Under the pieces are notes generated by a model. It saw nothing but the letters and a program-made list of their open reading frames with translations, ran no database searches and was not told the DNA's origin. Position numbers and translations under genes: made by a program. Shown here piece after piece: positions 3,235-53,162 of a stretch of 64,000 nt of DNA. The stretch comes from a virus: IMG/VR virus record IMGVR_UViG_3300010311_000130. One strand, written 5' to 3'. Each line of letters begins with the position of its first letter. Position 1 is the first letter of the stretch.

Positions 3235-4347
3235 GTGATAGTAGTGTTAAAAAGTTACAAGTTTAGACTATATCCCAATAAAGAACAGGAGTTGCTCATA
3301 CAAAAGACGTTTGGTTGCGTGAGATTCGTGTATAATCAATGTTTGGCATATAAGATAGACAAATATAAAACCGAAGAAGTGTCTTTGTCTAGGATAGATG
3401 TAAACAATTATAAGAATCGCACTCTCAAAACTGAATATGAATGGCTCAAAGAAGTTGATAAATTTGCCTTAGATAATGCTGTTATCAATCTTGATTCAGC
3501 ATATCAGAAGTTTTTTAGAGAACGCAAAGGATTCCCTAAATTCAAGAGTAAAAAAGACAATCGCAGGTCTTACAAGACAAATATCACAGGCTCAAATATC
3601 GAGGTTGATTTTGATAGTCGTAAAATCAAACTGCCTAAACTCAAATGGATAAAATCAAGAGGATTAAGATGTTTTGATGGCAAAATCAAATCAGCCACAA
3701 TTAGTCAAACTCCAAGTGGCAAGTATTATTGTTCTGTTCTTGTAGAACAAGAAGATTATAGTCCATTTGCTGAGACTGGTTGCGATGCGGGAATTGACCT
3801 CGGTATTAAAGATTTTGCTATCACATCAAACGGGGACAAAATATCAAATCCAAAATATCTTGCCAAGTCTGAAAAGAAGCTTGTTAAGTTGCAGAAACAA
3901 CTATCACGAAAGTCAAGTGGTAGTAACAACCGCAACAAAGCAAGAATAAAAGTAGCGAGAGTATGGGATAAAATTACTAATCAGCGCACAGACTTTTTGC
4001 AGAAACTTTCTACAGAGTTGATACGCAAATATGATGTAATCTGCTTGGAGGACTTGAACGTGGCGGGAATGGTAAAGAACCATTGCCTTGCAAAGTCAAT
4101 ATCAGATTGCTCATGGAGTGAGTTTGTGAGAATGTTGCAATACAAGGCTGATTGGTATGGTCGGACTATCTCAAAGATAGACAGGTTCTATCCAAGTTCA
4201 CAGACTTGCAGTTGTTGTGGTTATGTAAACCCTGAGACTAAAGACTTGTCTGTGAGAGAGTGGGTCTGTCCTGATTGTGGAGCAACACATGACAGAGATA
4301 TTAACGCCGCCAAGAATATCTTAAAGCAAGGATTATTAGCAGTCTAA
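3235..4347 (+). CDS. tnpB: TnpB RNA-guided endonuclease
   Basis: N-terminal YKFRLYP HTH; RuvC residues in GIDLG, LEDL and DRDINAA all present; Zn finger CSCCG...CPDCG. Confidence 0.95.
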
Positions 4348-6800: not shown

Positions 6801-7826
6801 TTATTCAATTGCCTTATTAATCATATCATCAATCTCTTTTATAGCTTTATAAGCATTGCCTTTAGCTAAATGTGCTTTCATAGAATTAATGATTTGCAGA
6901 AGATGTTCTTTTGTTATCTTATTTGTTTTGTATGCTTTTATAAGTCTTTTAATTTTATGCCTACGTTTAGTATATCTTTTCTTGTCAGGTAACATAAGAA
7001 CTTTGCCTGTATCAGTAATTTTATATTTCCAATGCAGATACATGATACCGTGTTTTATCTTCTGTAATACAGTTTTGTTATTTAATTCAAGGTCAATCCC
7101 TGTGAGATATGCTTCTATATACTCTTTAGCTTCAATTAATTGTTCTTTACTTTCGCTTACCAATATAAAATCATCCATATATCTTGTATAGACCTTTATA
7201 TGTAATTTCTCCTTTATAATATGGTCAAGCTCATCGAGATAGAATAAAGCTAATAATTGACTGACCTGACTTCCTAAACCAAGCCCTCTATCACCAAAGC
7301 TATCAATTATCATGTATACCATATATAGGATATGTTCATCGTCAATGCGTTCCGCAAGTTTATCCTTTAATATATCGTGATTGATACTTTCAAAGAAATG
7401 ATGTACGTCACACTTTAGATAATAACCATCATTGCCATGTTTACGGTAATACTTCTGCAATTGTCTTTTAAAATCATTTAATACAAATGTAGTTCCTTTG
7501 CCTTTCTGACAAGCTCCATTGGAGTGTATAAAGGATTTTGTAAGTAAATCATATAGAGTTGTATCACACACACTTCTTTGTATCTGCCTGTCTCTGATTT
7601 TTGTTGCTGTTATATGCCTTAACTTAGGTTCATAAATGGTAAAGTTCTGATACTCAGATAACTTATACTTGCCAGACTTTATATCTCTTAAAGCCTTTGC
7701 AGTATTCTTTAAACCATTCATTTCAAACTGTGTTACAGATGTTTTCCATCTTACATTCTTACAGCACTTCTTCAATCCCTCATACATATTTTTAAAGTCA
7801 AGATATTCTTGTTCCAATATTATCAT
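6801..7826 (-). CDS. DGR reverse transcriptase
   Basis: YMDDF catalytic motif, GLGSQVSQLLA (DGR-type SQ motif), LKCDVHHFFESI, RDRQIQ; start moved to ATG 7826 behind GAGGAAG; adjacent to TR and avd. Confidence 0.95.
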   Translation of the reverse strand: MIILEQEYLDFKNMYEGLKKCCKNVRWKTSVTQFEMNGLKNTAKALRDIKSGKYKLSEYQNFTIYEPKLRHITATKIRDRQIQRSVCDTTLYDLLTKSFIHSNGACQKGKGTTFVLNDFKRQLQKYYRKHGNDGYYLKCDVHHFFESINHDILKDKLAERIDDEHILYMVYMIIDSFGDRGLGLGSQVSQLLALFYLDELDHIIKEKLHIKVYTRYMDDFILVSESKEQLIEAKEYIEAYLTGIDLELNNKTVLQKIKHGIMYLHWKYKITDTGKVLMLPDKKRYTKRRHKIKRLIKAYKTNKITKEHLLQIINSMKAHLAKGNAYKAIKEIDDMINKAIE

Positions 7827-7985
7827 CTTCCTCACTTGTGGATAGCGAAGTATCTCGTAAGAGACACCTCGCATCAAGTGTTAATTTTGTTGGCATTTCT
7901 GCCAAACAGGTTAATCTTTCCTTGCAAAAATGGTACGACTTTCACTTTCGTTACTCGTTCTGACCAAGTTCATTATTTCTGTAAT

Positions 7986-42391: not shown

Positions 42392-42448
42392 ATCGCCACT
42401 CCTTTAATTCAAATTGGTGCGCCGTCCAACATCATTGCAGTCGGACAA

Positions 42449-42472
42449 CACAAAAGCCCCGACAATCGGGGC
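42449..42472 (-). terminator. Intrinsic terminator after the recombinase gene
   Basis: Minus strand GCCCCGA TTG TCGGGGC TTTTGT. Confidence 0.7.
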
Positions 42473-42518
42473 ATAATAGGAGGAATTATAAATTGTAGAT
42501 TTCTAATAAAATGTGGGT

Positions 42519-43523
42519 TTAAACAAGACCAAACATCTCGTCGATTTCTTCTTCGTCGTGATTCATCAAATATCCTTGTGTAGTTGATATATCACTATGG
42601 TGAAGTGCTTTTGAAATTTGATCTATTGTAAACACCTTTGGTTTACCATTCTCGTCTAAAAGCCTTGTGTCTGTTCCTTGTTTCAAACACTCAGCACGAG
42701 AATGTCTCATTGTATGACAGAAGATATTACAAGGTTCACCTCTAACCTGTGAAAAGATATTTGAGATAGAAACCATTCTATTGTACAGGCAATCCTTTGT
42801 AATCTCCGTCTTAGTATCTCCAACAATCTTTACCCATAATGATTCAATATCATCATCGCCACGCTGTTCAAGATACTTTGCTATTAAATCTCTTGTATCG
42901 TCAAGATAAACGAGAGGGAATTTCTTGCCGCGTTTGCCGACAACTATATTTGTCTTATTGCCCTCTGTCAGACCTTGCTTCTTCACTTGATATAATTCAT
43001 TCTTACGGGCAGCAGAATCAAAACCGAGACTTAGCAGAACAGCGTCTTGTAATCTGCCTTTCTCTACGAGTATATCTCTCACTTTAATGAACTCATCAAA
43101 TGTAAAGAAGAAGTCATCGTCATTGTCTCTTACTCTTTCTCTTGGGAGTCCTTTGACTTTCTTAGCAAGATTGTTGTCGTATTCATAGTCATCATCTTCT
43201 TCAGCAAAGGTAAGTATAGAATTAATAGTTGCCTTCAAGCGATTAACTCTCGCAGATGACATTTGCTTTTCTTCTGAGAACCACAAACTCATACCACGAA
43301 AATCTTTCTTCTTTAACTCAAGGAGACTGCGATTTCCGAGTTGTTGTAAAACATAAATCAGTATATACCTACCATCTTGAAAATAAGCGTCGATTGTTGA
43401 TTTAGCCTTCTTTCTCTGGCGATACTCCGCTAAGAAATCTTCAAGCAGAGCCTTGTTGTCTGGGTTGACTTGTTCCCATAATTCGGGTGTATAAATCTTA
43501 TTATAGATTCTTCCACGTTTCAC
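42519..43523 (-). CDS. Tyrosine recombinase (XerC/D-like)
   Basis: Catalytic R (SAARKNE), K (GKRGK), H..RH (CHTMRH), H (LHHSD) and Y (TTQGY). Confidence 0.9.
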   Translation of the reverse strand: MKRGRIYNKIYTPELWEQVNPDNKALLEDFLAEYRQRKKAKSTIDAYFQDGRYILIYVLQQLGNRSLLELKKKDFRGMSLWFSEEKQMSSARVNRLKATINSILTFAEEDDDYEYDNNLAKKVKGLPRERVRDNDDDFFFTFDEFIKVRDILVEKGRLQDAVLLSLGFDSAARKNELYQVKKQGLTEGNKTNIVVGKRGKKFPLVYLDDTRDLIAKYLEQRGDDDIESLWVKIVGDTKTEITKDCLYNRMVSISNIFSQVRGEPCNIFCHTMRHSRAECLKQGTDTRLLDENGKPKVFTIDQISKALHHSDISTTQGYLMNHDEEEIDEMFGLV

Positions 43524-43553
43524 ATTGTCATCTCCTTACGCTCATTTTGTTAA

Positions 43554-44598
43554 TTATTTTCCGAAAAGATTATAATTTGAACAAATTTCTTTTGCTACAA
43601 GTTTGTTTTCTGATATTGCATTAAGTATTTTTCGCATATAAGAATAGTTTTCTATATACTCTTGTAACTGCTCAAAAGTATTGTTGTAAGTACCATATAT
43701 ATTATGAAATGAACCTGCAATAAACGGATTATGACAAAGTTCACATAGGGTAATGCCGTTATCTATATCTAACGCCAAATCTTTATGCTGGGCATAATTT
43801 TTTATGCGATGGGCATTAAGGTTTATGTGACCGCCACAACATTGACAAGTATAATTATCTCTTTGTAAAACAGATTTTCTCCACACTTTTAGCGTTTCAG
43901 ACTGTCTGTGTTTATAATTAGGAGATAATGTACGAGGTCTGCGTATATCAAATTGATTAGAAAATAATTTGTTATTAAGGATATAGTAAGATTTTTCACC
44001 TATTTTTTGAATTGAAAATACAGGCTCATTATTGGCAATAAAAGTTTTGTACCGAGCGTGAATATTCCTATCTGCGGTGATTCCAAAAAGAGAAAAAACA
44101 ATCCTTTATCGACAATTCTTGATTGTTCAAAATAAACCTATTTCTTTCAAAATCGTATAAAGGCAAGCATCTAAACATATAAGACATTGTTTTGTGACTG
44201 TGTAAATCAACGGAGAAATACAAATCTCGAAACATATTAATATTTATCAGCATTGCTACTTTATCATTTTCTTTTATATCTCTCGTATCTCTTGAAACAA
44301 GAGAATTAGGCAATTTGATACTTTGAGTTTGTTCATCTATTTCAAAAAGTTTTGCGTCCAAACATTCTTTATAAAAACTTCTAAACGTATCTTCTTTCAA
44401 CTTCAAACGCTCTTTGCACATTTCCTTTGTCATTAAAGCGTTATTTCCGGACTTTAATGTTCCGTCATAACTCAGAAATGTAGCCATATACAAATACCGT
44501 ATATAGTTTGAAGAAGATATTCCCCAATCAACAATTTTATTTCTATCAAAAGACAATCTTATGAATTTCTCCATACACACCATTTCCAATCTCACCAT
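43554..44598 (-). pseudogene. wHTH protein fused to an HNH endonuclease, split by a homopolymer frameshift at 44093-44098
   Basis: Removing one T from the T6 run joins ORF 44068-44598 to an open frame (DCFSLFG...) that continues into WRKSVLQRDNYTCQCCG...AHRI...NGITLC..CH. Confidence 0.8.
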
Positions 44599-44696
44599 TC
44601 AAAGATTATAAAGGCAGAAGTGAATGGTGACACTTGTCAAGAGAATGATCGGTTCTCTCTATCTGCCTTTAATGCTTATAGCGTTGACGACACGCT

Positions 44697-44742
44697 TGGT
44701 CACGGTGGACTGAGTTGCACAGTCACTTAAACTCCTACCGTG
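44697..44742 (-). ncRNA. Armless tRNA-like minihelix ending in ACCA
   Basis: CACGGTA + 11-nt linker + GACTG-TGCAACT-CAGTC + CACCGTG + A-CCA; six acceptor pairs plus one A-C mismatch. Confidence 0.5.
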
Positions 44743-45091
44743 ATAATGCGCACCTTTACATTGTGCTGTAAACGGTATAATGCGCAATATTCAAGCACGA
44801 AAATCAATATGCAAACTGTGCGCACAGCCTACATTATGCAAGAGATGCCTGAAAACTCTTTCCTTGAAAGACCTACCGTGGTACGCTTGCAACAGAGGCA
44901 TGGTAGGTACATTATCTTCTATGAGGTGCAGTTTCGCAAACAGGCGGTCATAAACTCTACCTGAGAGGTACTTGCTACACCCTATTTGGGGCGGACTCTA
45001 AGGAGCGACCTCAGACCAGGCTATCCGCATATAGGCGGCATAATTACTGACTGCCGCCGTGTCAGTGTCGGTTTCCTCCGATAGGAAGGAG

Positions 45092-45167
45092 TGGTGAGCA
45101 ATTCCAGATTTGCACTGAATACTTTGTCATCCTTTGTGACAACGCTTTACTACCAAGCTCATTGCCC
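45092..45167 (-). tRNA. Non-canonical tRNA-like gene, 76 nt, anticodon position AAG
   Basis: Acceptor GGGCAAT/ATTGCTC + A-CCA; D stem GCTT/AAGC; anticodon stem TTGTCA/TGACAA, loop CAAAGGA (A33 instead of U33); T stem TTCAG/CTGGA, loop TGCAAAT. Confidence 0.7.
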
Positions 45168-45249
45168 ATAGGGGACTCTGCCCCTATTACAGATATATTT
45201 TACTTCCCTCTCTTTGGGAAGAATTACAAGCCGACTTGCGGCTATATAA

Positions 45250-45603
45250 TCAATAACAATGCATGAACCAAGACTCGTTATCCAGGAACGAATCGTCCAC
45301 AGTGATAGTGCAACCCACCATATAGCTCTGCATCGGATCAAAATACGGAGTAATAGCAGAACGTGGCACGTAATAACCGTACCAATATTCCGTAGTGTTC
45401 TTATCCGCATTCAGCAGAACGAGAGTGTAGGCTGGCTGTATATTGTAACCATTACTGCAGGTGCCGCACAAATGCTGCCGAAGCACGATGACTTCCGTCT
45501 GCCACCACCAGTGAAATGCCTGTGCCTTACTCGGCTTAACAAATGGAAGAGTGACAAAACACAGTGCGACGCTCATGAAAAGTGCTAAAATCTTATTCTT
45601 CAT
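45250..45603 (-). CDS. Putative secreted protein
   Basis: Sec-type signal peptide MKNKILALFMSVALCFV...KAQA; GAGG RBS. Confidence 0.7.
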   Translation of the reverse strand: MKNKILALFMSVALCFVTLPFVKPSKAQAFHWWWQTEVIVLRQHLCGTCSNGYNIQPAYTLVLLNADKNTTEYWYGYYVPRSAITPYFDPMQSYMVGCTITVDDSFLDNESWFMHCY

Positions 45604-45619
45604 TTTCTACCTCGCTTTC

Positions 45620-45655
45620 GTGAACTACCCGTCGTCTAAAGCCAACGGGCTTCTC
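45620..45655 (-). mobile_element. Orphan IS200/IS605-type right-end hairpin
   Basis: Minus strand GAGAAGCCCGTTGGCTTTAGACGACGGGTAGTTCAC shares GAAGCCC..GGGTAGTTCA with the tnpB right end and GGCTTTAGACG with its left end. Confidence 0.7.
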
Positions 45656-45665
45656 GCTAAATTCT

Positions 45666-46088
45666 TTAAAATACATTTTCAAAAATCTGAGTTTCAATCT
45701 TGAAAGGTATAACCGTTGCGTGTAACGGCAAAGTAAAATTCTTTGCGCTGTACTCCACAAAATACACCCCGTCATCTACATATGCAGACTCGTCATCTAA
45801 AGCCTTTTCACATATGATTTCGCCATTAGCAAACAGAGTGATAAGAGTGTTACCGTCGTATTCTTTAACACACTGAACATCTGCATAAGCTTCATCTGTA
45901 AACTCGCCACGCATAGCAATGCTATTGCCGTTAATGGTAAACGTATTGAGTAACTGGCACACACCCAGCGCATCCTGCCAATTCGCTATAAGGAACGCAA
46001 CTCCATTTTCCATAGCGGAGCGCACAAACTCGGATGTGAAATCCTCATATCTGTCATATCTCTTAAAGGCAGTTTCAGGTATATTCAC
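45666..46088 (-). CDS. Hypothetical protein (paralogue of the next gene)
   Basis: LITLFANGEIICEKA matches LLSYGEEGDIWCQKA of 46089-46436. Confidence 0.7.
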   Translation of the reverse strand: MNIPETAFKRYDRYEDFTSEFVRSAMENGVAFLIANWQDALGVCQLLNTFTINGNSIAMRGEFTDEAYADVQCVKEYDGNTLITLFANGEIICEKALDDESAYVDDGVYFVEYSAKNFTLPLHATVIPFKIETQIFENVF

Positions 46089-50513: not shown

Positions 50514-53162
50514 TCAAAGATTTTCGGTTGTATGCCCCTTAATGCTATGATGATTTGTCCGTTTATCTTTGCTATTTATATACTTTAATCTATACTTTTT
50601 CTGACACTCAGAGCAACGACATTTACCATTAACTCTCTTTATCTCAACCCCACAATCAACACACACATATCCGTACTTCAACTTATTAGCCTGTATATTT
50701 TCATAGACTATATCGCCATAAACATGGAAGAAAAATTCCTTGCAACGAGAGTCTTTAAAAATATTATGATCCTTAAACATATCCTGAATAAGCATATCGC
50801 ATATCTCATATTGGGCATAATCGAATTGTTGCATAACCGATACAATATCGTTGATAGCCACAGAATTATTTATTTCTTCTTTCCCATGTTTGAGTTTTAC
50901 TGTCGATACGACATCACTATATGCCCTTAAAACACTTTCGTCCACTTCAATATCTGGGTTATTCATTAACATACGATAGTCAAATCTGCATTTATCTGTA
51001 AAACCAAGCTTAAATTCATTTTCGGGATAGAGTGTTTTGATACGATTTACTATGCAATCATTGATAGGTTCAAGTTGCTCTGGTTTTTTATCTTTTGCAT
51101 ATTCAAAGAATGCTGGCAATTTCTTATTTACATATTTAGAAATAGTTTCCTTAACATTCTTCGGCGGTGTGCTTTTGTATAAAGTTTTGGCGAAATCTAT
51201 AATTTCATTATTGACCATTGTACTGAATTTCAAACAATCAATAGCCTCTTGTCTTGTTTCGGGTTTTCTAATTTCTTGACTATTCTTTATTTTACTAATA
51301 TTATTGCTTATCACTCCAATATTACCACCAGTAAACGCAACAGACAGTCCTTTGTATCTGCTTTCACTTGTTATAGGTTCTTTAGCTGCTTTACGCATAT
51401 TATAATACAAAGACACAATGCCAGTTTGATTTCTTTTAGCAACATCAATAATATTCTGGTCTTGCAGAACAAGTGTTCTGTCACCGTCAGTGTCAAACTG
51501 CAAAATTTTACTAATTACATCATGTGTGCTTGTGTAACACCCTTTAGTCAAAAACCATTTTTCTTTTTCTTCATCAGTAACATTTCGACGTATTGCGTGT
51601 TCAAAATATAAGTGAGGACTCCTAAGACAATCTACTTCTTTGCCAAACTCGTGCAATTTACAATATACCTCGCCATCAGCCAATAATCCCGTCGGAACTT
51701 GAATACCCATAAACAACCATTCACTAAATGCATAAAAATCTGGAAGTAAAAATGTGTAATAGCCATTCACTCTAAATTTGGCGGAATATAAATCTTTTAT
51801 AAGTTTTTTTCTAAAATCACGAAGTCGGTCTCTGAAATAACTATCTTTTATTAATCCATTATATTCCATAAGGCATTTTTGCATACCATTATACTTATAA
51901 TAAGGCTTACCTTCTTTAATGCCAAACATTTTAAACTGCACTTCTTTATCAGAACAAATTCCATTAATAAAGCTGACACTATCCGAACACATCTTCTTTA
52001 GTTCAATATCTTTATAATCTATGAAACTTTGAATCATCTGGTAATTGATAGAAGCTCTTTTAAAATAATCTTCCTCTACATTGCACTTGCCAGCACGACA
52101 ACCATACTTTTTAAAACGACTCTTATAATCGTCCCAACTATCATAATAAGCAGCCATTTTAAGTTGACTCTTTGTGAAAATTATTTGTATATTATCTTCA
52201 AAAATATCCCATTCTTTGCCCCACATATCTTTCACTTTTGTAGAACAACCATTTTCCTTTATAAATGCCTTAAAATCAAATACTCCAAGCAATCCTTTTG
52301 TCCACGGCATACGCACCATAAAATTTTTATCACTTAATTCTGGGCTAATCATTCCACAACCATCCGTATGGGAAATGGGAACTGGCATAGTTTGACGAGT
52401 AATACTATAATCCCTATCATCAACATAATCAACTTCTGTAACTACATTAGTCTCAAAATCATCAACTACAATACATCTATCTATATCAAAATCTTTCCAT
52501 TCTTCTGTAGCCGATCCGCAGAGCGCAAGATAAGCATTGTATTTATTGAGATTCATACCGCCTTTACTATTAATTTCCTCTACAGTAAGACCGCAAGCAA
52601 GTCTATTCCAATTCTTATTAAGTAAATCTTCTCGTACAAATACAGCCTTCTTAGTGCGGATTTGACCCGCACTACTTGCAAAGTACACATATTTAACACC
52701 GTTATGATAAAAGCCACTATGTATTAAATGTTCAAGTATTTCAAAGTAGAATACTGATATAACCATCATTTGCTCATTAACTTCTGTGTTTTCTACGGTT
52801 TGACGCACATCGAGATTTAATGGTTTCATATTTAAGCAACGAGTTAATTCACTATCAAAAACCGATATTCTATTGTAAGGATTAAGCTTTGCAGGATTGA
52901 CGCTCCTACGGCGAGACATATTGCATCTCATCATAGAAATAAGTTTTTCTTTCGACAAAGCAAGTTTCTTTGATACTTCATTATATTTGTCTTGCACAAT
53001 AATACGCACAGCATCGTCCAAATCTTTGTTCTTTAAACACTCTCGATAACATCCTTTAACATTGCGGAGTTTGTACATTTTTTGTTCAAGGTTTCGTTCT
53101 TCGTCGAAATAGAACGCGCTGGTGTCCAATCCATATATACAATATTGTCTATCAAGTGCCAA
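50514..53162 (-). CDS. yonO: YonO-like single-subunit double-psi beta-barrel RNA polymerase
   Basis: TTG start behind GGAGGG; SSAGQIRTKKAVF, HTDGCGMI, RMPWTKG, LRSPHLY and the Mg-binding LQFDTDGD motif; 882 aa. Confidence 0.9.
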   Translation of the reverse strand: MALDRQYCIYGLDTSAFYFDEERNLEQKMYKLRNVKGCYRECLKNKDLDDAVRIIVQDKYNEVSKKLALSKEKLISMMRCNMSRRRSVNPAKLNPYNRISVFDSELTRCLNMKPLNLDVRQTVENTEVNEQMMVISVFYFEILEHLIHSGFYHNGVKYVYFASSAGQIRTKKAVFVREDLLNKNWNRLACGLTVEEINSKGGMNLNKYNAYLALCGSATEEWKDFDIDRCIVVDDFETNVVTEVDYVDDRDYSITRQTMPVPISHTDGCGMISPELSDKNFMVRMPWTKGLLGVFDFKAFIKENGCSTKVKDMWGKEWDIFEDNIQIIFTKSQLKMAAYYDSWDDYKSRFKKYGCRAGKCNVEEDYFKRASINYQMIQSFIDYKDIELKKMCSDSVSFINGICSDKEVQFKMFGIKEGKPYYKYNGMQKCLMEYNGLIKDSYFRDRLRDFRKKLIKDLYSAKFRVNGYYTFLLPDFYAFSEWLFMGIQVPTGLLADGEVYCKLHEFGKEVDCLRSPHLYFEHAIRRNVTDEEKEKWFLTKGCYTSTHDVISKILQFDTDGDRTLVLQDQNIIDVAKRNQTGIVSLYYNMRKAAKEPITSESRYKGLSVAFTGGNIGVISNNISKIKNSQEIRKPETRQEAIDCLKFSTMVNNEIIDFAKTLYKSTPPKNVKETISKYVNKKLPAFFEYAKDKKPEQLEPINDCIVNRIKTLYPENEFKLGFTDKCRFDYRMLMNNPDIEVDESVLRAYSDVVSTVKLKHGKEEINNSVAINDIVSVMQQFDYAQYEICDMLIQDMFKDHNIFKDSRCKEFFFHVYGDIVYENIQANKLKYGYVCVDCGVEIKRVNGKCRCSECQKKYRLKYINSKDKRTNHHSIKGHTTENL

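Follow-up and report, generated by a model that had tools for sequence, protein, structure and literature searches.

The DNA analysed here is a stretch of 64,000 nucleotides (nt) from a virus (IMG/VR record IMGVR_UViG_3300010311_000130; "the window" in the following), a portion of a large phage whose complete relatives measure 106-113 kb. From about 5 kb to 59 kb nearly all of its genes lie on the minus strand, and within this gene-dense strand positions 44599-45249 (minus strand) form a 650-nt stretch that holds no conserved open reading frame (ORF) and carries conserved RNA structure (hereafter "the gap"). An initial annotation, made from the sequence alone, had proposed for this region a large structured non-coding RNA (ncRNA) punctuated by tRNA-like elements, and comparison with related phages bears this out in its essentials: covariation and synteny both point to a structured, conserved minus-strand ncRNA with tRNA-like elements at the borders of its modules. 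On one side the gap is bounded by the stop of ORF117 (45250-45252); on the other it ends at the first ATG of ORF176 (44598) or, with greater likelihood, at the ATG at 44583, which is probably the true start because one stem of a structured element at 44593-44670 would sequester the likely Shine-Dalgarno region. Upstream of it are encoded a YonO-like single-subunit RNA polymerase (RNAP; Pfam RdRP), a ClpP-like protease, a metallo-beta-lactamase (MBL)/beta-CASP nuclease and an exonuclease, while ORF176, an HNH protein, an integrase, a glycosyltransferase, the gene o379 and the large terminase follow downstream (Pfam, PHROGs).

Relatives were located via the exonuclease, and homologous modules were collected by DNA-motif scans of IMG/VR and the JGI metagenomes together with BLAST, which yielded about 20 distinct contigs. 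In minus-strand order the locus comprises the following elements, and everything that had been listed in the initial annotation is present where it was placed:

45168-45243, minus strand: three leader hairpins, H1 (45229-45243), H2 (45203-45221) and H3 (45168-45187), read from the sequence.
45092-45167, minus strand: TL1, a 76-nt non-decoding tRNA-like cloverleaf (covariation in alignment A8).
45075-45091, minus strand: small hairpin CTCC...GGAG, which immediately follows TL1's ACCA.
45034-45066, minus strand: candidate H-type pseudoknot with stems S1 (ACTGAC/GTCAGT) and S2 (GGCGGC/GCCGCC), from an alignment of seven sequences.
44987-45028, minus strand: MH2, an acceptor/T-arm minihelix in which GCGGAT/GTCCGC encloses CTGAG-GTCGCTC-CTTAG.
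44915-44986, minus strand: variable spacer module with a TACCT/AGGTA hairpin, which in the alignment the window has in common only with L029 and L037.
44743-44914, minus strand: conserved core RNA of about 170 nt (BLAST, RNAalifold, covariation).
44871-44907, minus strand: P1 of the core, an abiF-like hairpin (RNAalifold, Rfam abiF).
44857-44871, minus strand: P2 of the core, a small hairpin whose loop tolerates a 26-nt insert.
44845-44857 with 44786-44798, minus strand: P3 of the core, a long-range helix enclosing P4.
44805-44838, minus strand: P4 of the core, an extended hairpin with apex CTGTGCGCACAG.
44748-44785, minus strand: P5 of the core, the 3' hairpin, followed by the 3' tail AUUAU.
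44697-44742, minus strand: MH3, an "armless tRNA" with acceptor CACGGTA/CACCGTG, an 11-nt linker, the T arm GACTG-UGCAACU-CAGTC and ACCA.
44680-44696, minus strand: hairpin AGCGT-GTCGTCA-ACGCT, directly after this ACCA and conserved in nearly all relatives.
44593-44670, minus strand: leader structure or second pseudoknot, in which AAAGGCAGA/TCTGCCTTT enclose a hairpin.
42519-44598, minus strand: ORF176-HNH-integrase cassette, inside the tRNA-like array (Pfam, PHROGs).
42452-42472, minus strand: intrinsic terminator between the integrase and glycosyltransferase genes, outside the range originally given.
42415-42451, minus strand: MH4, an ACCA minihelix with loop UGCAAUGAU, just after the terminator and a member of the A5 minihelix family.

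The most widely shared of these elements is the core, which BLAST recovers at 72-90% identity in about 15 distinct contigs and whose 3' 122 nt are its most widespread portion. In a MAFFT alignment 96.7% of the cells of its proposed structure are paired, as compared with 22-45% in slid controls, and nine pairs are changed on both sides, a result matched by none of 500 shuffles. A covariance model (CM) of the 3' 122 nt recovers the divergent copy of L001 at 57.7 bits, and with this copy added 17 of the 37 core pairs covary in an alignment that was fitted to the model; over the two alignments the slid controls lie at about 23-50%. Neither the distant tRNA-array loci nor the control loci contain anything found by the model R1 of these 122 nt, and the core looks restricted to one clade. 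Against GenBank phages, blastn of the gap returned no match, and a 16-mer scan of genome contigs gave chance matches only, none alignable to the gap and none revealing a host or prophage copy. A coding role of the core is ruled out, since each of its frames is interrupted by stops in some relatives and the 26-nt loop insert shifts the frame; the earlier statement that some 650 nt lack a credible ORF holds, and no frame is conserved. Initially, a single RNA of about 350 nt (44743-45091) had been predicted to be excised from this region, a proposal that the comparison does not sustain: the locus is pieced together from modules that can replace one another, and the unit conserved throughout is the core of about 170 nt. 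Within the core, the P4 hairpin (44805-44838, minus strand) together with the following AUUGAUUUUC was flagged as terminator-like and is enclosed by P3; a switch between termination and read-through at this place is conceivable.

TL1 resembles a tRNA in its 7-bp acceptor (GGGCAAT/ATTGCTC, followed by ACCA), its D arm (GCTT-GGTAGTA-AAGC) and its T arm (stem TTCAG/CTGGA, loop UGCAAAU), and departs from one in the features needed for decoding, i.e. a 5-bp anticodon stem, a loop with U33, a conserved anticodon and a T loop of the type UUCRANY. Its "anticodon" arm has a 6-bp stem and the loop CAAAGGA in the window, with neither U33 nor a conserved anticodon, and a 3-bp stem with the 8-nt loop GAUAAAAA in relatives. 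All 95 cloverleaf cells of the five aligned sequences are paired (100%), and in 10 of the 19 pairs both partners have changed, which none of 500 shuffles reaches, with the D arm, the T loop (UGCAAAU or CGCACAU) and ACCA staying fixed. ARAGORN reports no tRNA gene in the window, and the Rfam tRNA model RF00005 (gathering score 29 bits) gives no match at E<=10 in 44200-45700 or 44590-45260; the real tRNAs of relatives score 41-75 bits. Additional members of the TL1 family were found in L316, L319, L320 and L324. The copy at L316:384-459 (plus strand) is a sister of the window type; its acceptor (GAGTGAT/ATCACTC) covaries, and its loop reads CAGAGGA as compared with CAAAGGA. If read as anticodons, the two loops would give GAG and AAG, both for leucine, but the arm is 6 bp long and carries A at position 33.

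The second class of tRNA-like elements consists of acceptor/T-arm minihelices, related examples of which are MH2 and MH3. The A5 family, to which MH4 belongs, combines a 12-position helix with an invariant loop UGCAAYGAU and an invariant ACCA, and in 10 of its 12 pairs both partners have changed. When the whole collection was scanned for this family, true copies (10-12 pairs) separated cleanly from chance matches (1-9 pairs, most of them 3-7), and copies in L205, L264 and L269 were added, each with a GC-rich hairpin in front. MH2 ends in CCCA in the window and in ACCA in relatives; its one-sided changes preserve pairs as G-U on the minus strand, and in L002 and L037 a 59-nt insert separates its arms. 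The arrangement of a terminator followed by an ACCA minihelix, as at MH4, has a chance expectation of 0.02 occurrences in the window. Upstream of this pair a conserved UUCCUCC (42476-42486, minus strand) is complementary to the ribosome-binding site AAGGAG of the glycosyltransferase gene (42398-42404), an arrangement which recurs in L002, L056 and L205. Moreover, the UGCAA in the T loops of all these tRNA mimics (TL1, MH3, MH4) has its complement, UUGCA, both in the loop of P1 (44871-44907) and in the P3/P4 internal loop CUCUUGCAU (44840-44845), and mimics and core could make contact loop to loop.

Such elements could be the remnants of decaying tRNA genes, accompanied by chance hairpins and devoid of function, and indeed TL1 is tRNA-like with degenerate loops, is rejected by both ARAGORN and Rfam and, as described below, occupies a region that holds tRNA arrays in related phages. 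This explanation, the least probable of those we considered, conflicts with the complete turnover of stems under 86-100% pairing, with the invariance of non-canonical loops across lineages and with the 72-90% conservation of a core that has no tRNA ancestry. Because 10 of 19 pairs in TL1 and 10 of 12 in the minihelix covary around fixed loops and ACCA, the alignments indicate that the mimics are under selection for structure and are not products of decay.

The remaining elements are supported to differing degrees. The stems of the leader hairpins are compensatorily changed at the same positions in relatives (CTTCCC/GGGAAG vs CTTGCG/CGCAAG vs CTTGCC/GGCAAG); H1 was flagged as terminator-like, and the GC-rich H3 lies immediately 5' of the first tRNA or tRNA-like element. 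The small hairpin after TL1 is conserved as CTCCTCCTGACGGGAG in L002, L026, L036, L037, L201 and L205. The first pseudoknot predicted earlier is present, with 98.8% of cells paired in its seven sequences, and is weakly supported, being compatible with the alignment and nearly invariant: one pair is changed on both sides, three changes preserve wobble pairs, and 30 of 500 shuffles match this result. The second pseudoknot, likewise predicted, is present in the leader structure, where CACCATTCA and TGAATGGTG form stem 2 across what is likely the Shine-Dalgarno region of ORF176; this stem covaries in L029 (CACCATT/AATGGTG vs GTCCTTT/AAAGGAC). Furthermore, the gap contains the stems TCTTTC/GAAAGA and TTTACA/TGTAAA and the repeats TGCGCATTAT and CACGGTAGG, all of them noted before, as were the nested stems of MH2 and the spacer hairpin. 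A promoter-like TTGCGA-17-GATAAT in the spacer (44939-44911) is not above chance, and an explanation of the gap by promoters or intrinsic terminators is unsupported.

The strand of the RNA is not given by folding energy, which exceeds that of shuffles on both strands (z of -3.6 and -4.5), so that thermodynamics alone says little. It is fixed by near-invariant G-U pairs and by the orientation of the real tRNAs in relatives, both of which agree with the minus strand that had been deduced from wobble pairs. The CM of the core scores 136-151 bits on the forward and 17-25 bits on the reverse strand, the model having been built on the forward strand.

The position of the gap within the genome provides the second line of evidence. 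In L006-L022 the interval between the exonuclease and o379/large terminase (terL) genes holds 3-20 real tRNAs, encoded on the same strand and directly downstream of the exonuclease, and these island-bearing relatives share the YonO-like RNAP, ClpP, exonuclease and o379/terminase with the window. The closest of them, L010 (RNAP 64% and exonuclease 46% identical, ClpP and o379 also present), carries three tRNAs followed by a full-length ROOL RNA directly after tRNA-Met (L010:8154-8730, 336.7 bits), and L015 has one directly after tRNA-Leu (L015:5053-5617, 321.5 bits). As relatives hold tRNAs, or tRNAs together with ROOL, in this interval, it is by gene order the tRNA and ncRNA island of this phage group, with the gap sitting in the same slot.

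At a finer scale, modules are shuffled between contigs, the usual order being leader hairpins, tRNA or tRNA-like element, small hairpin and pseudoknot, minihelix, variable spacer and core, followed by a tRNA or minihelix, a hairpin and the leader of the gene that follows. At fixed borders, exact to the nucleotide, mimics and real tRNAs take each other's place. The MH3 slot, which follows ...GCGCATTAT, holds a tRNA from its position +1 in seven loci (tRNA-Met in L028, tRNA-Glu in L029, L036, L056, L061 and L068, tRNA-Trp in L037), the ACCA minihelix in the window and a different ACCA minihelix in L002, L004, L026 and L034. Similarly, the TL1 slot is filled by a real tRNA-Asn in L056, L061 and L068. 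The 5' end of the core abuts the ACCA of the preceding element in most relatives, and the hairpin AGCGT...ACGCT follows CCA whether the slot holds a real tRNA or a minihelix.

The same slot invites the alternative that most of the roughly 600 nt act as one large RNA, a functional analogue of ROOL or GOLLD that possibly self-assembles via palindromic loops. ROOL and GOLLD are large structured phage ncRNAs that are encoded close to tRNA islands and assemble into homo-oligomeric cages (PMC12286853), and the analogy drawn in the initial annotation is apt by position, given that L010 and L015 carry bona fide ROOL beside tRNAs in this slot and that the size is similar; a phage or prophage location beside a tRNA island is a trait shared with ROOL, and self-complementary motifs exist in the loop of P1 (UUGCAA), at the apex of P4 (GCGC) and as TGCGCA, which occurs three times. 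The models nevertheless give no ROOL or GOLLD match even at E<=10, and among close relatives the modules are shuffled, replaced and split by real tRNAs and a 2-kb gene cassette, which argues against one obligate large fold and makes this alternative unlikely in our view. For ROOL (RF03087) the gap contains no match at the gathering threshold (99.1 bits) or at E<=10, nor do the four related phage records G001-G004, while the same search returned 337 and 322 bits for L010 and L015 as positive controls. GOLLD, tmRNA, RNase P RNA and group I/II introns likewise have no Rfam match in the gap, and ARAGORN finds no tmRNA. Membership in the tRNA, ROOL, GOLLD, tmRNA, abiF and int-alpA families is rejected by the respective models, in agreement with the earlier view that the RNA cannot be assigned to a known family.

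The array does not end with the gap. Because a minihelix copy (MH4) lies at 42415-42451, it extends to the terminator and ACCA minihelix at 42415-42472, and the ORF176-HNH-integrase cassette therefore sits inside it. In L001 and L026 the integrase gene follows directly after the array; L002 has no such cassette, yet about 21 nt of the integrase 3' end are retained. Comparison of L002:8200-8260 with window 42500-42540 illustrates that L002-L004 are without the integrase cassette and keep these 21 nt or so together with the downstream sequence; loss of the cassette through a deletion in L002-L004 is more probable than its gain in the window. No relatives of ORF176 were found in IMG/VR.

This proximity to an integrase raises the question whether the conserved features act at the level of DNA, either as an attP or integrase-regulatory region with tRNA-derived sequence or as protein-binding repeats TGCGCATTAT for replication or late-gene control. 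An integrase gene is the immediate downstream neighbour in the window, L001, L026 and L028, direct repeats TGCGCATTAT and palindromes are present, and the leader element (K) resembles int-alpA in L201, where the homologue of 44593-44670 (L201:7832-7906) scores 26.3 bits with Rfam int-alpA (RF02996; E 0.0035, below the gathering threshold (GA) of 35.8). The copy in the window has no int-alpA match at E<=10, although its placement upstream of an integrase cassette is consistent with the location of int-alpA; for L201, a YrlA (Y RNA-like) assignment was dropped at only 13.9 bits. We regard a function in DNA as very unlikely, since compensatory changes and strand-specific G-U pairs point to RNA. 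A reading of the mimics as attP/tRNA fragments is rejected, because they possess both acceptor strands and non-canonical T loops and are thus not 3' fragments of host tRNAs, and because the array is kept without integrase in L002-L004. An attP site may still exist near the locus.

Taken together, we think it somewhat better than an even chance that the gap represents the tRNA island of this phage group in a derived form, i.e. a multi-module precursor in which tRNA mimics serve as punctuation and from which the core is released. The array would be transcribed from the minus strand as one non-coding precursor. TL1 and the ACCA-ended minihelices would have lost their decoding features and kept the parts that are recognised by tRNA 5' and 3' maturation enzymes, namely the coaxial acceptor/T-arm helix, a T-loop-like loop, the discriminator A and CCA, and it is for this reason that we consider them punctuation. 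An acceptor/T-arm minihelix with RCCA is a known type of minimal RNase P substrate, and the dependence of RNase P on RCCA has been described (PMC12710915). RNase P would cut 5' of the mimics, with trimming and CCA upkeep at their 3' side, so that the mimics define the ends of the intervening RNAs as real tRNAs must do in sister phages; these RNAs, foremost the core of about 170 nt (44743-44914) as the main cargo, would thereby be released and stabilised. Transcription of the array, RNase P cleavage, 3' processing and any role against host defences are what we infer from these features. As for the beta-CASP nuclease, whose help in the excision had been suggested as possible, its gene is present in L001, L034, L068, L028, L036 and L201 and absent from L002-L004, which have the core; such loose synteny does not favour a dedicated role of the nuclease in processing.

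Several observations count against this interpretation or lower the weight of its evidence. Counts of sigma-70 promoter and intrinsic terminator signals in the gap are not above those of shuffles, and in the T loops of the mimics G takes the position held by U55 in tRNAs. Since the core sequences all derive from a single phage clade, covariation cells are not independent events, and whereas A2, A5, A7 and A8 are plain MAFFT alignments, the CM alignment A4 was fitted to the model structure and its pair counts are somewhat inflated. With regard to the cargo, no P1 copy scored, in the window or in relatives, reaches the abiF cut-off (GA 37 bits); only the 5' half of the conserved unpaired abiF bases is matched in P1; and the window holds one clear abiF-like copy, while the antitoxin RNA RCd22 needs two motifs.

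The mimics might also be effectors themselves, acting as decoys or sponges for factors that handle tRNA acceptor ends or elbows (e.g. tRNA-targeting defence nucleases, nucleotidyltransferases, or tRNA-processing and -modification enzymes), with the core as an unrelated neighbour. We hold this for rather unlikely. In its favour, ACCA, the discriminator A and the family-specific UGCAA... loop are kept through full turnover of the stems, copies of the mimics sit at several sites within a genome and also in further phage contigs, and the non-anticodon loop GAUAAAAA of TL1 is conserved on a covarying 3-bp stem. What a pure decoy would not need is the constant position of the mimics at module borders, where they are interchangeable with real tRNAs. 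The two roles, effector and punctuation, are not exclusive.

For the released core, the likeliest job, though one that we hold for rather improbable, would be to bind a host toxin of the HEPN/AbiF type as a decoy antitoxin. AbiF/HEPN abortive-infection toxins are the ancestors of Cas13. The abiF motif RNA (RCd22) is a type III antitoxin by which the HEPN toxin AbiF is neutralised (10.1101/2025.04.15.648962), inhibition of AbiF has been reported for a hairpin that lies in the cos region of phage sk1 (PMC13064643), a lytic cyanophage has been reported to carry the abiF motif (PMC9964418), and antitoxin mimicry by phage RNA is established for ToxIN, where the pseudo-ToxI of PhiTE allows escape from abortive infection (PMC3475682). 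The proposal is based on the architecture of P1 and on its half of the conserved unpaired bases: in cmscan alignments P1 has the 6 bp, 1-nt bulge, 3 bp, loop of about 11 nt and 6-nt 3' internal loop of abiF (RF03085), the only notable Rfam match in the gap at E<=10. Two versions, P1-A and P1-B, share the 6-bp stem, the bulged A, the 3-bp stem, a loop starting with CCUCUG and the 6-nt 3' internal loop, and are 100% paired with three covarying pairs. The abiF model scores P1 at 21.4 bits in the window and at 28.1-29 bits in G001, G003 and G004, and for L191 it yields E 0.0074 over all families within 1.1 kb. The toxin domain Abi_2 (PF07751) was found neither in the four related phage records G001-G004 nor in 30 window ORFs scanned (the unscanned ones being mostly structural), and a decoy therefore fits better than a self-contained toxin-antitoxin pair. 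More speculative again is the wider picture of a clade of rumen/digester-type phages of about 110 kb whose island would be an anti-defence RNA factory, in which mimics recruit tRNA maturation and the core silences AbiF/HEPN, and in which the mimics may additionally soak up tRNA-directed defences.

Elsewhere in the window three further loci deserve mention. An 882-aa protein encoded at 50514-53162 (minus strand) matches Pfam RdRP with 59 bits, consistent with a single-subunit RNAP of the YonO type, and is 64% identical in L010; this polymerase may be the one that reads the tRNA island and the late genes. At 3235-4347 (plus strand) an IS605-family TnpB (OrfB_IS605, a Cas12f1-like TNB domain and a helix-turn-helix) lies inside the plus-strand arm of the phage. 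The sole Rfam match in the window at gathering thresholds is an RT-2 RNA at 7811-7968 (minus strand; 50.6 bits, above the cut-off), which is unrelated to the gap and adjoins an ORF of reverse-transcriptase size, a setting that fits a diversity-generating retroelement (DGR).

The cloverleaf of TL1, the UGCAAYGAU/ACCA minihelix and the core are three new RNA motifs, each well supported by covariation. Phage tRNA islands are known to hold enigmatic large RNAs (ROOL, GOLLD, T4 RNAC/D), and the abiF-like hairpin offers a concrete and testable link between such an island and AbiF-type defence. With the abiF motif P1 shares the 6-bp stem, the bulged A, the 3-bp stem, the loop starting with CCUCU and the 6-nt 3' internal loop, and differs from it in the sequence of that internal loop and in its sub-threshold score (21-29 bits, below GA 37); moreover, the motif lies upstream of abiF, whereas P1 is embedded in a tRNA-island RNA. 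The pseudo-ToxI of PhiTE, a phage RNA imitating a type III antitoxin, is the model for the decoy proposed here, with the differences that its target is ToxN and not a toxin of the AbiF/HEPN family and that for P1 the likeness to abiF is below threshold and the function predicted.

In kind, the locus is closest to the ncRNAs of tRNA islands (ROOL, GOLLD and the T4 RNAC/D) and to tRNA-like end-processing signals. Known examples of the latter are mascRNA at the 3' end of MALAT1, mitochondrial tRNA punctuation and the minihelix substrates of RNase P, with which our locus has in common that tRNA-shaped elements stand at RNA borders so that maturation enzymes define the ends; it differs in being of phage and bacterial context and in having several types of mimic per array, with cleavage predicted. 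If the processing model is true, the array would be the counterpart in a bacterial virus of the tRNA-like end-processing of eukaryotic and organellar RNAs. RNAC and RNAD of T4 are small stable RNAs other than tRNAs in a phage tRNA cluster, with a role that is unknown (PMC3014915); the likeness is positional and a relation in sequence is not expected, and at our locus the neighbouring tRNAs are largely replaced by mimics. To ROOL and GOLLD the likeness is that of a large structured phage RNA beside a tRNA island, with ROOL in the very same slot in L010 and L015, whereas the present locus is modular, with a unit of about 170 nt rather than one fold of about 580 nt, and includes tRNA mimics and an abiF-like hairpin. 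In sister phages one slot is thus occupied by real tRNAs, by ROOL or by a third solution, covarying mimics together with a new compact RNA, and this natural replacement series provides a basis for asking what the RNAs of tRNA islands do.

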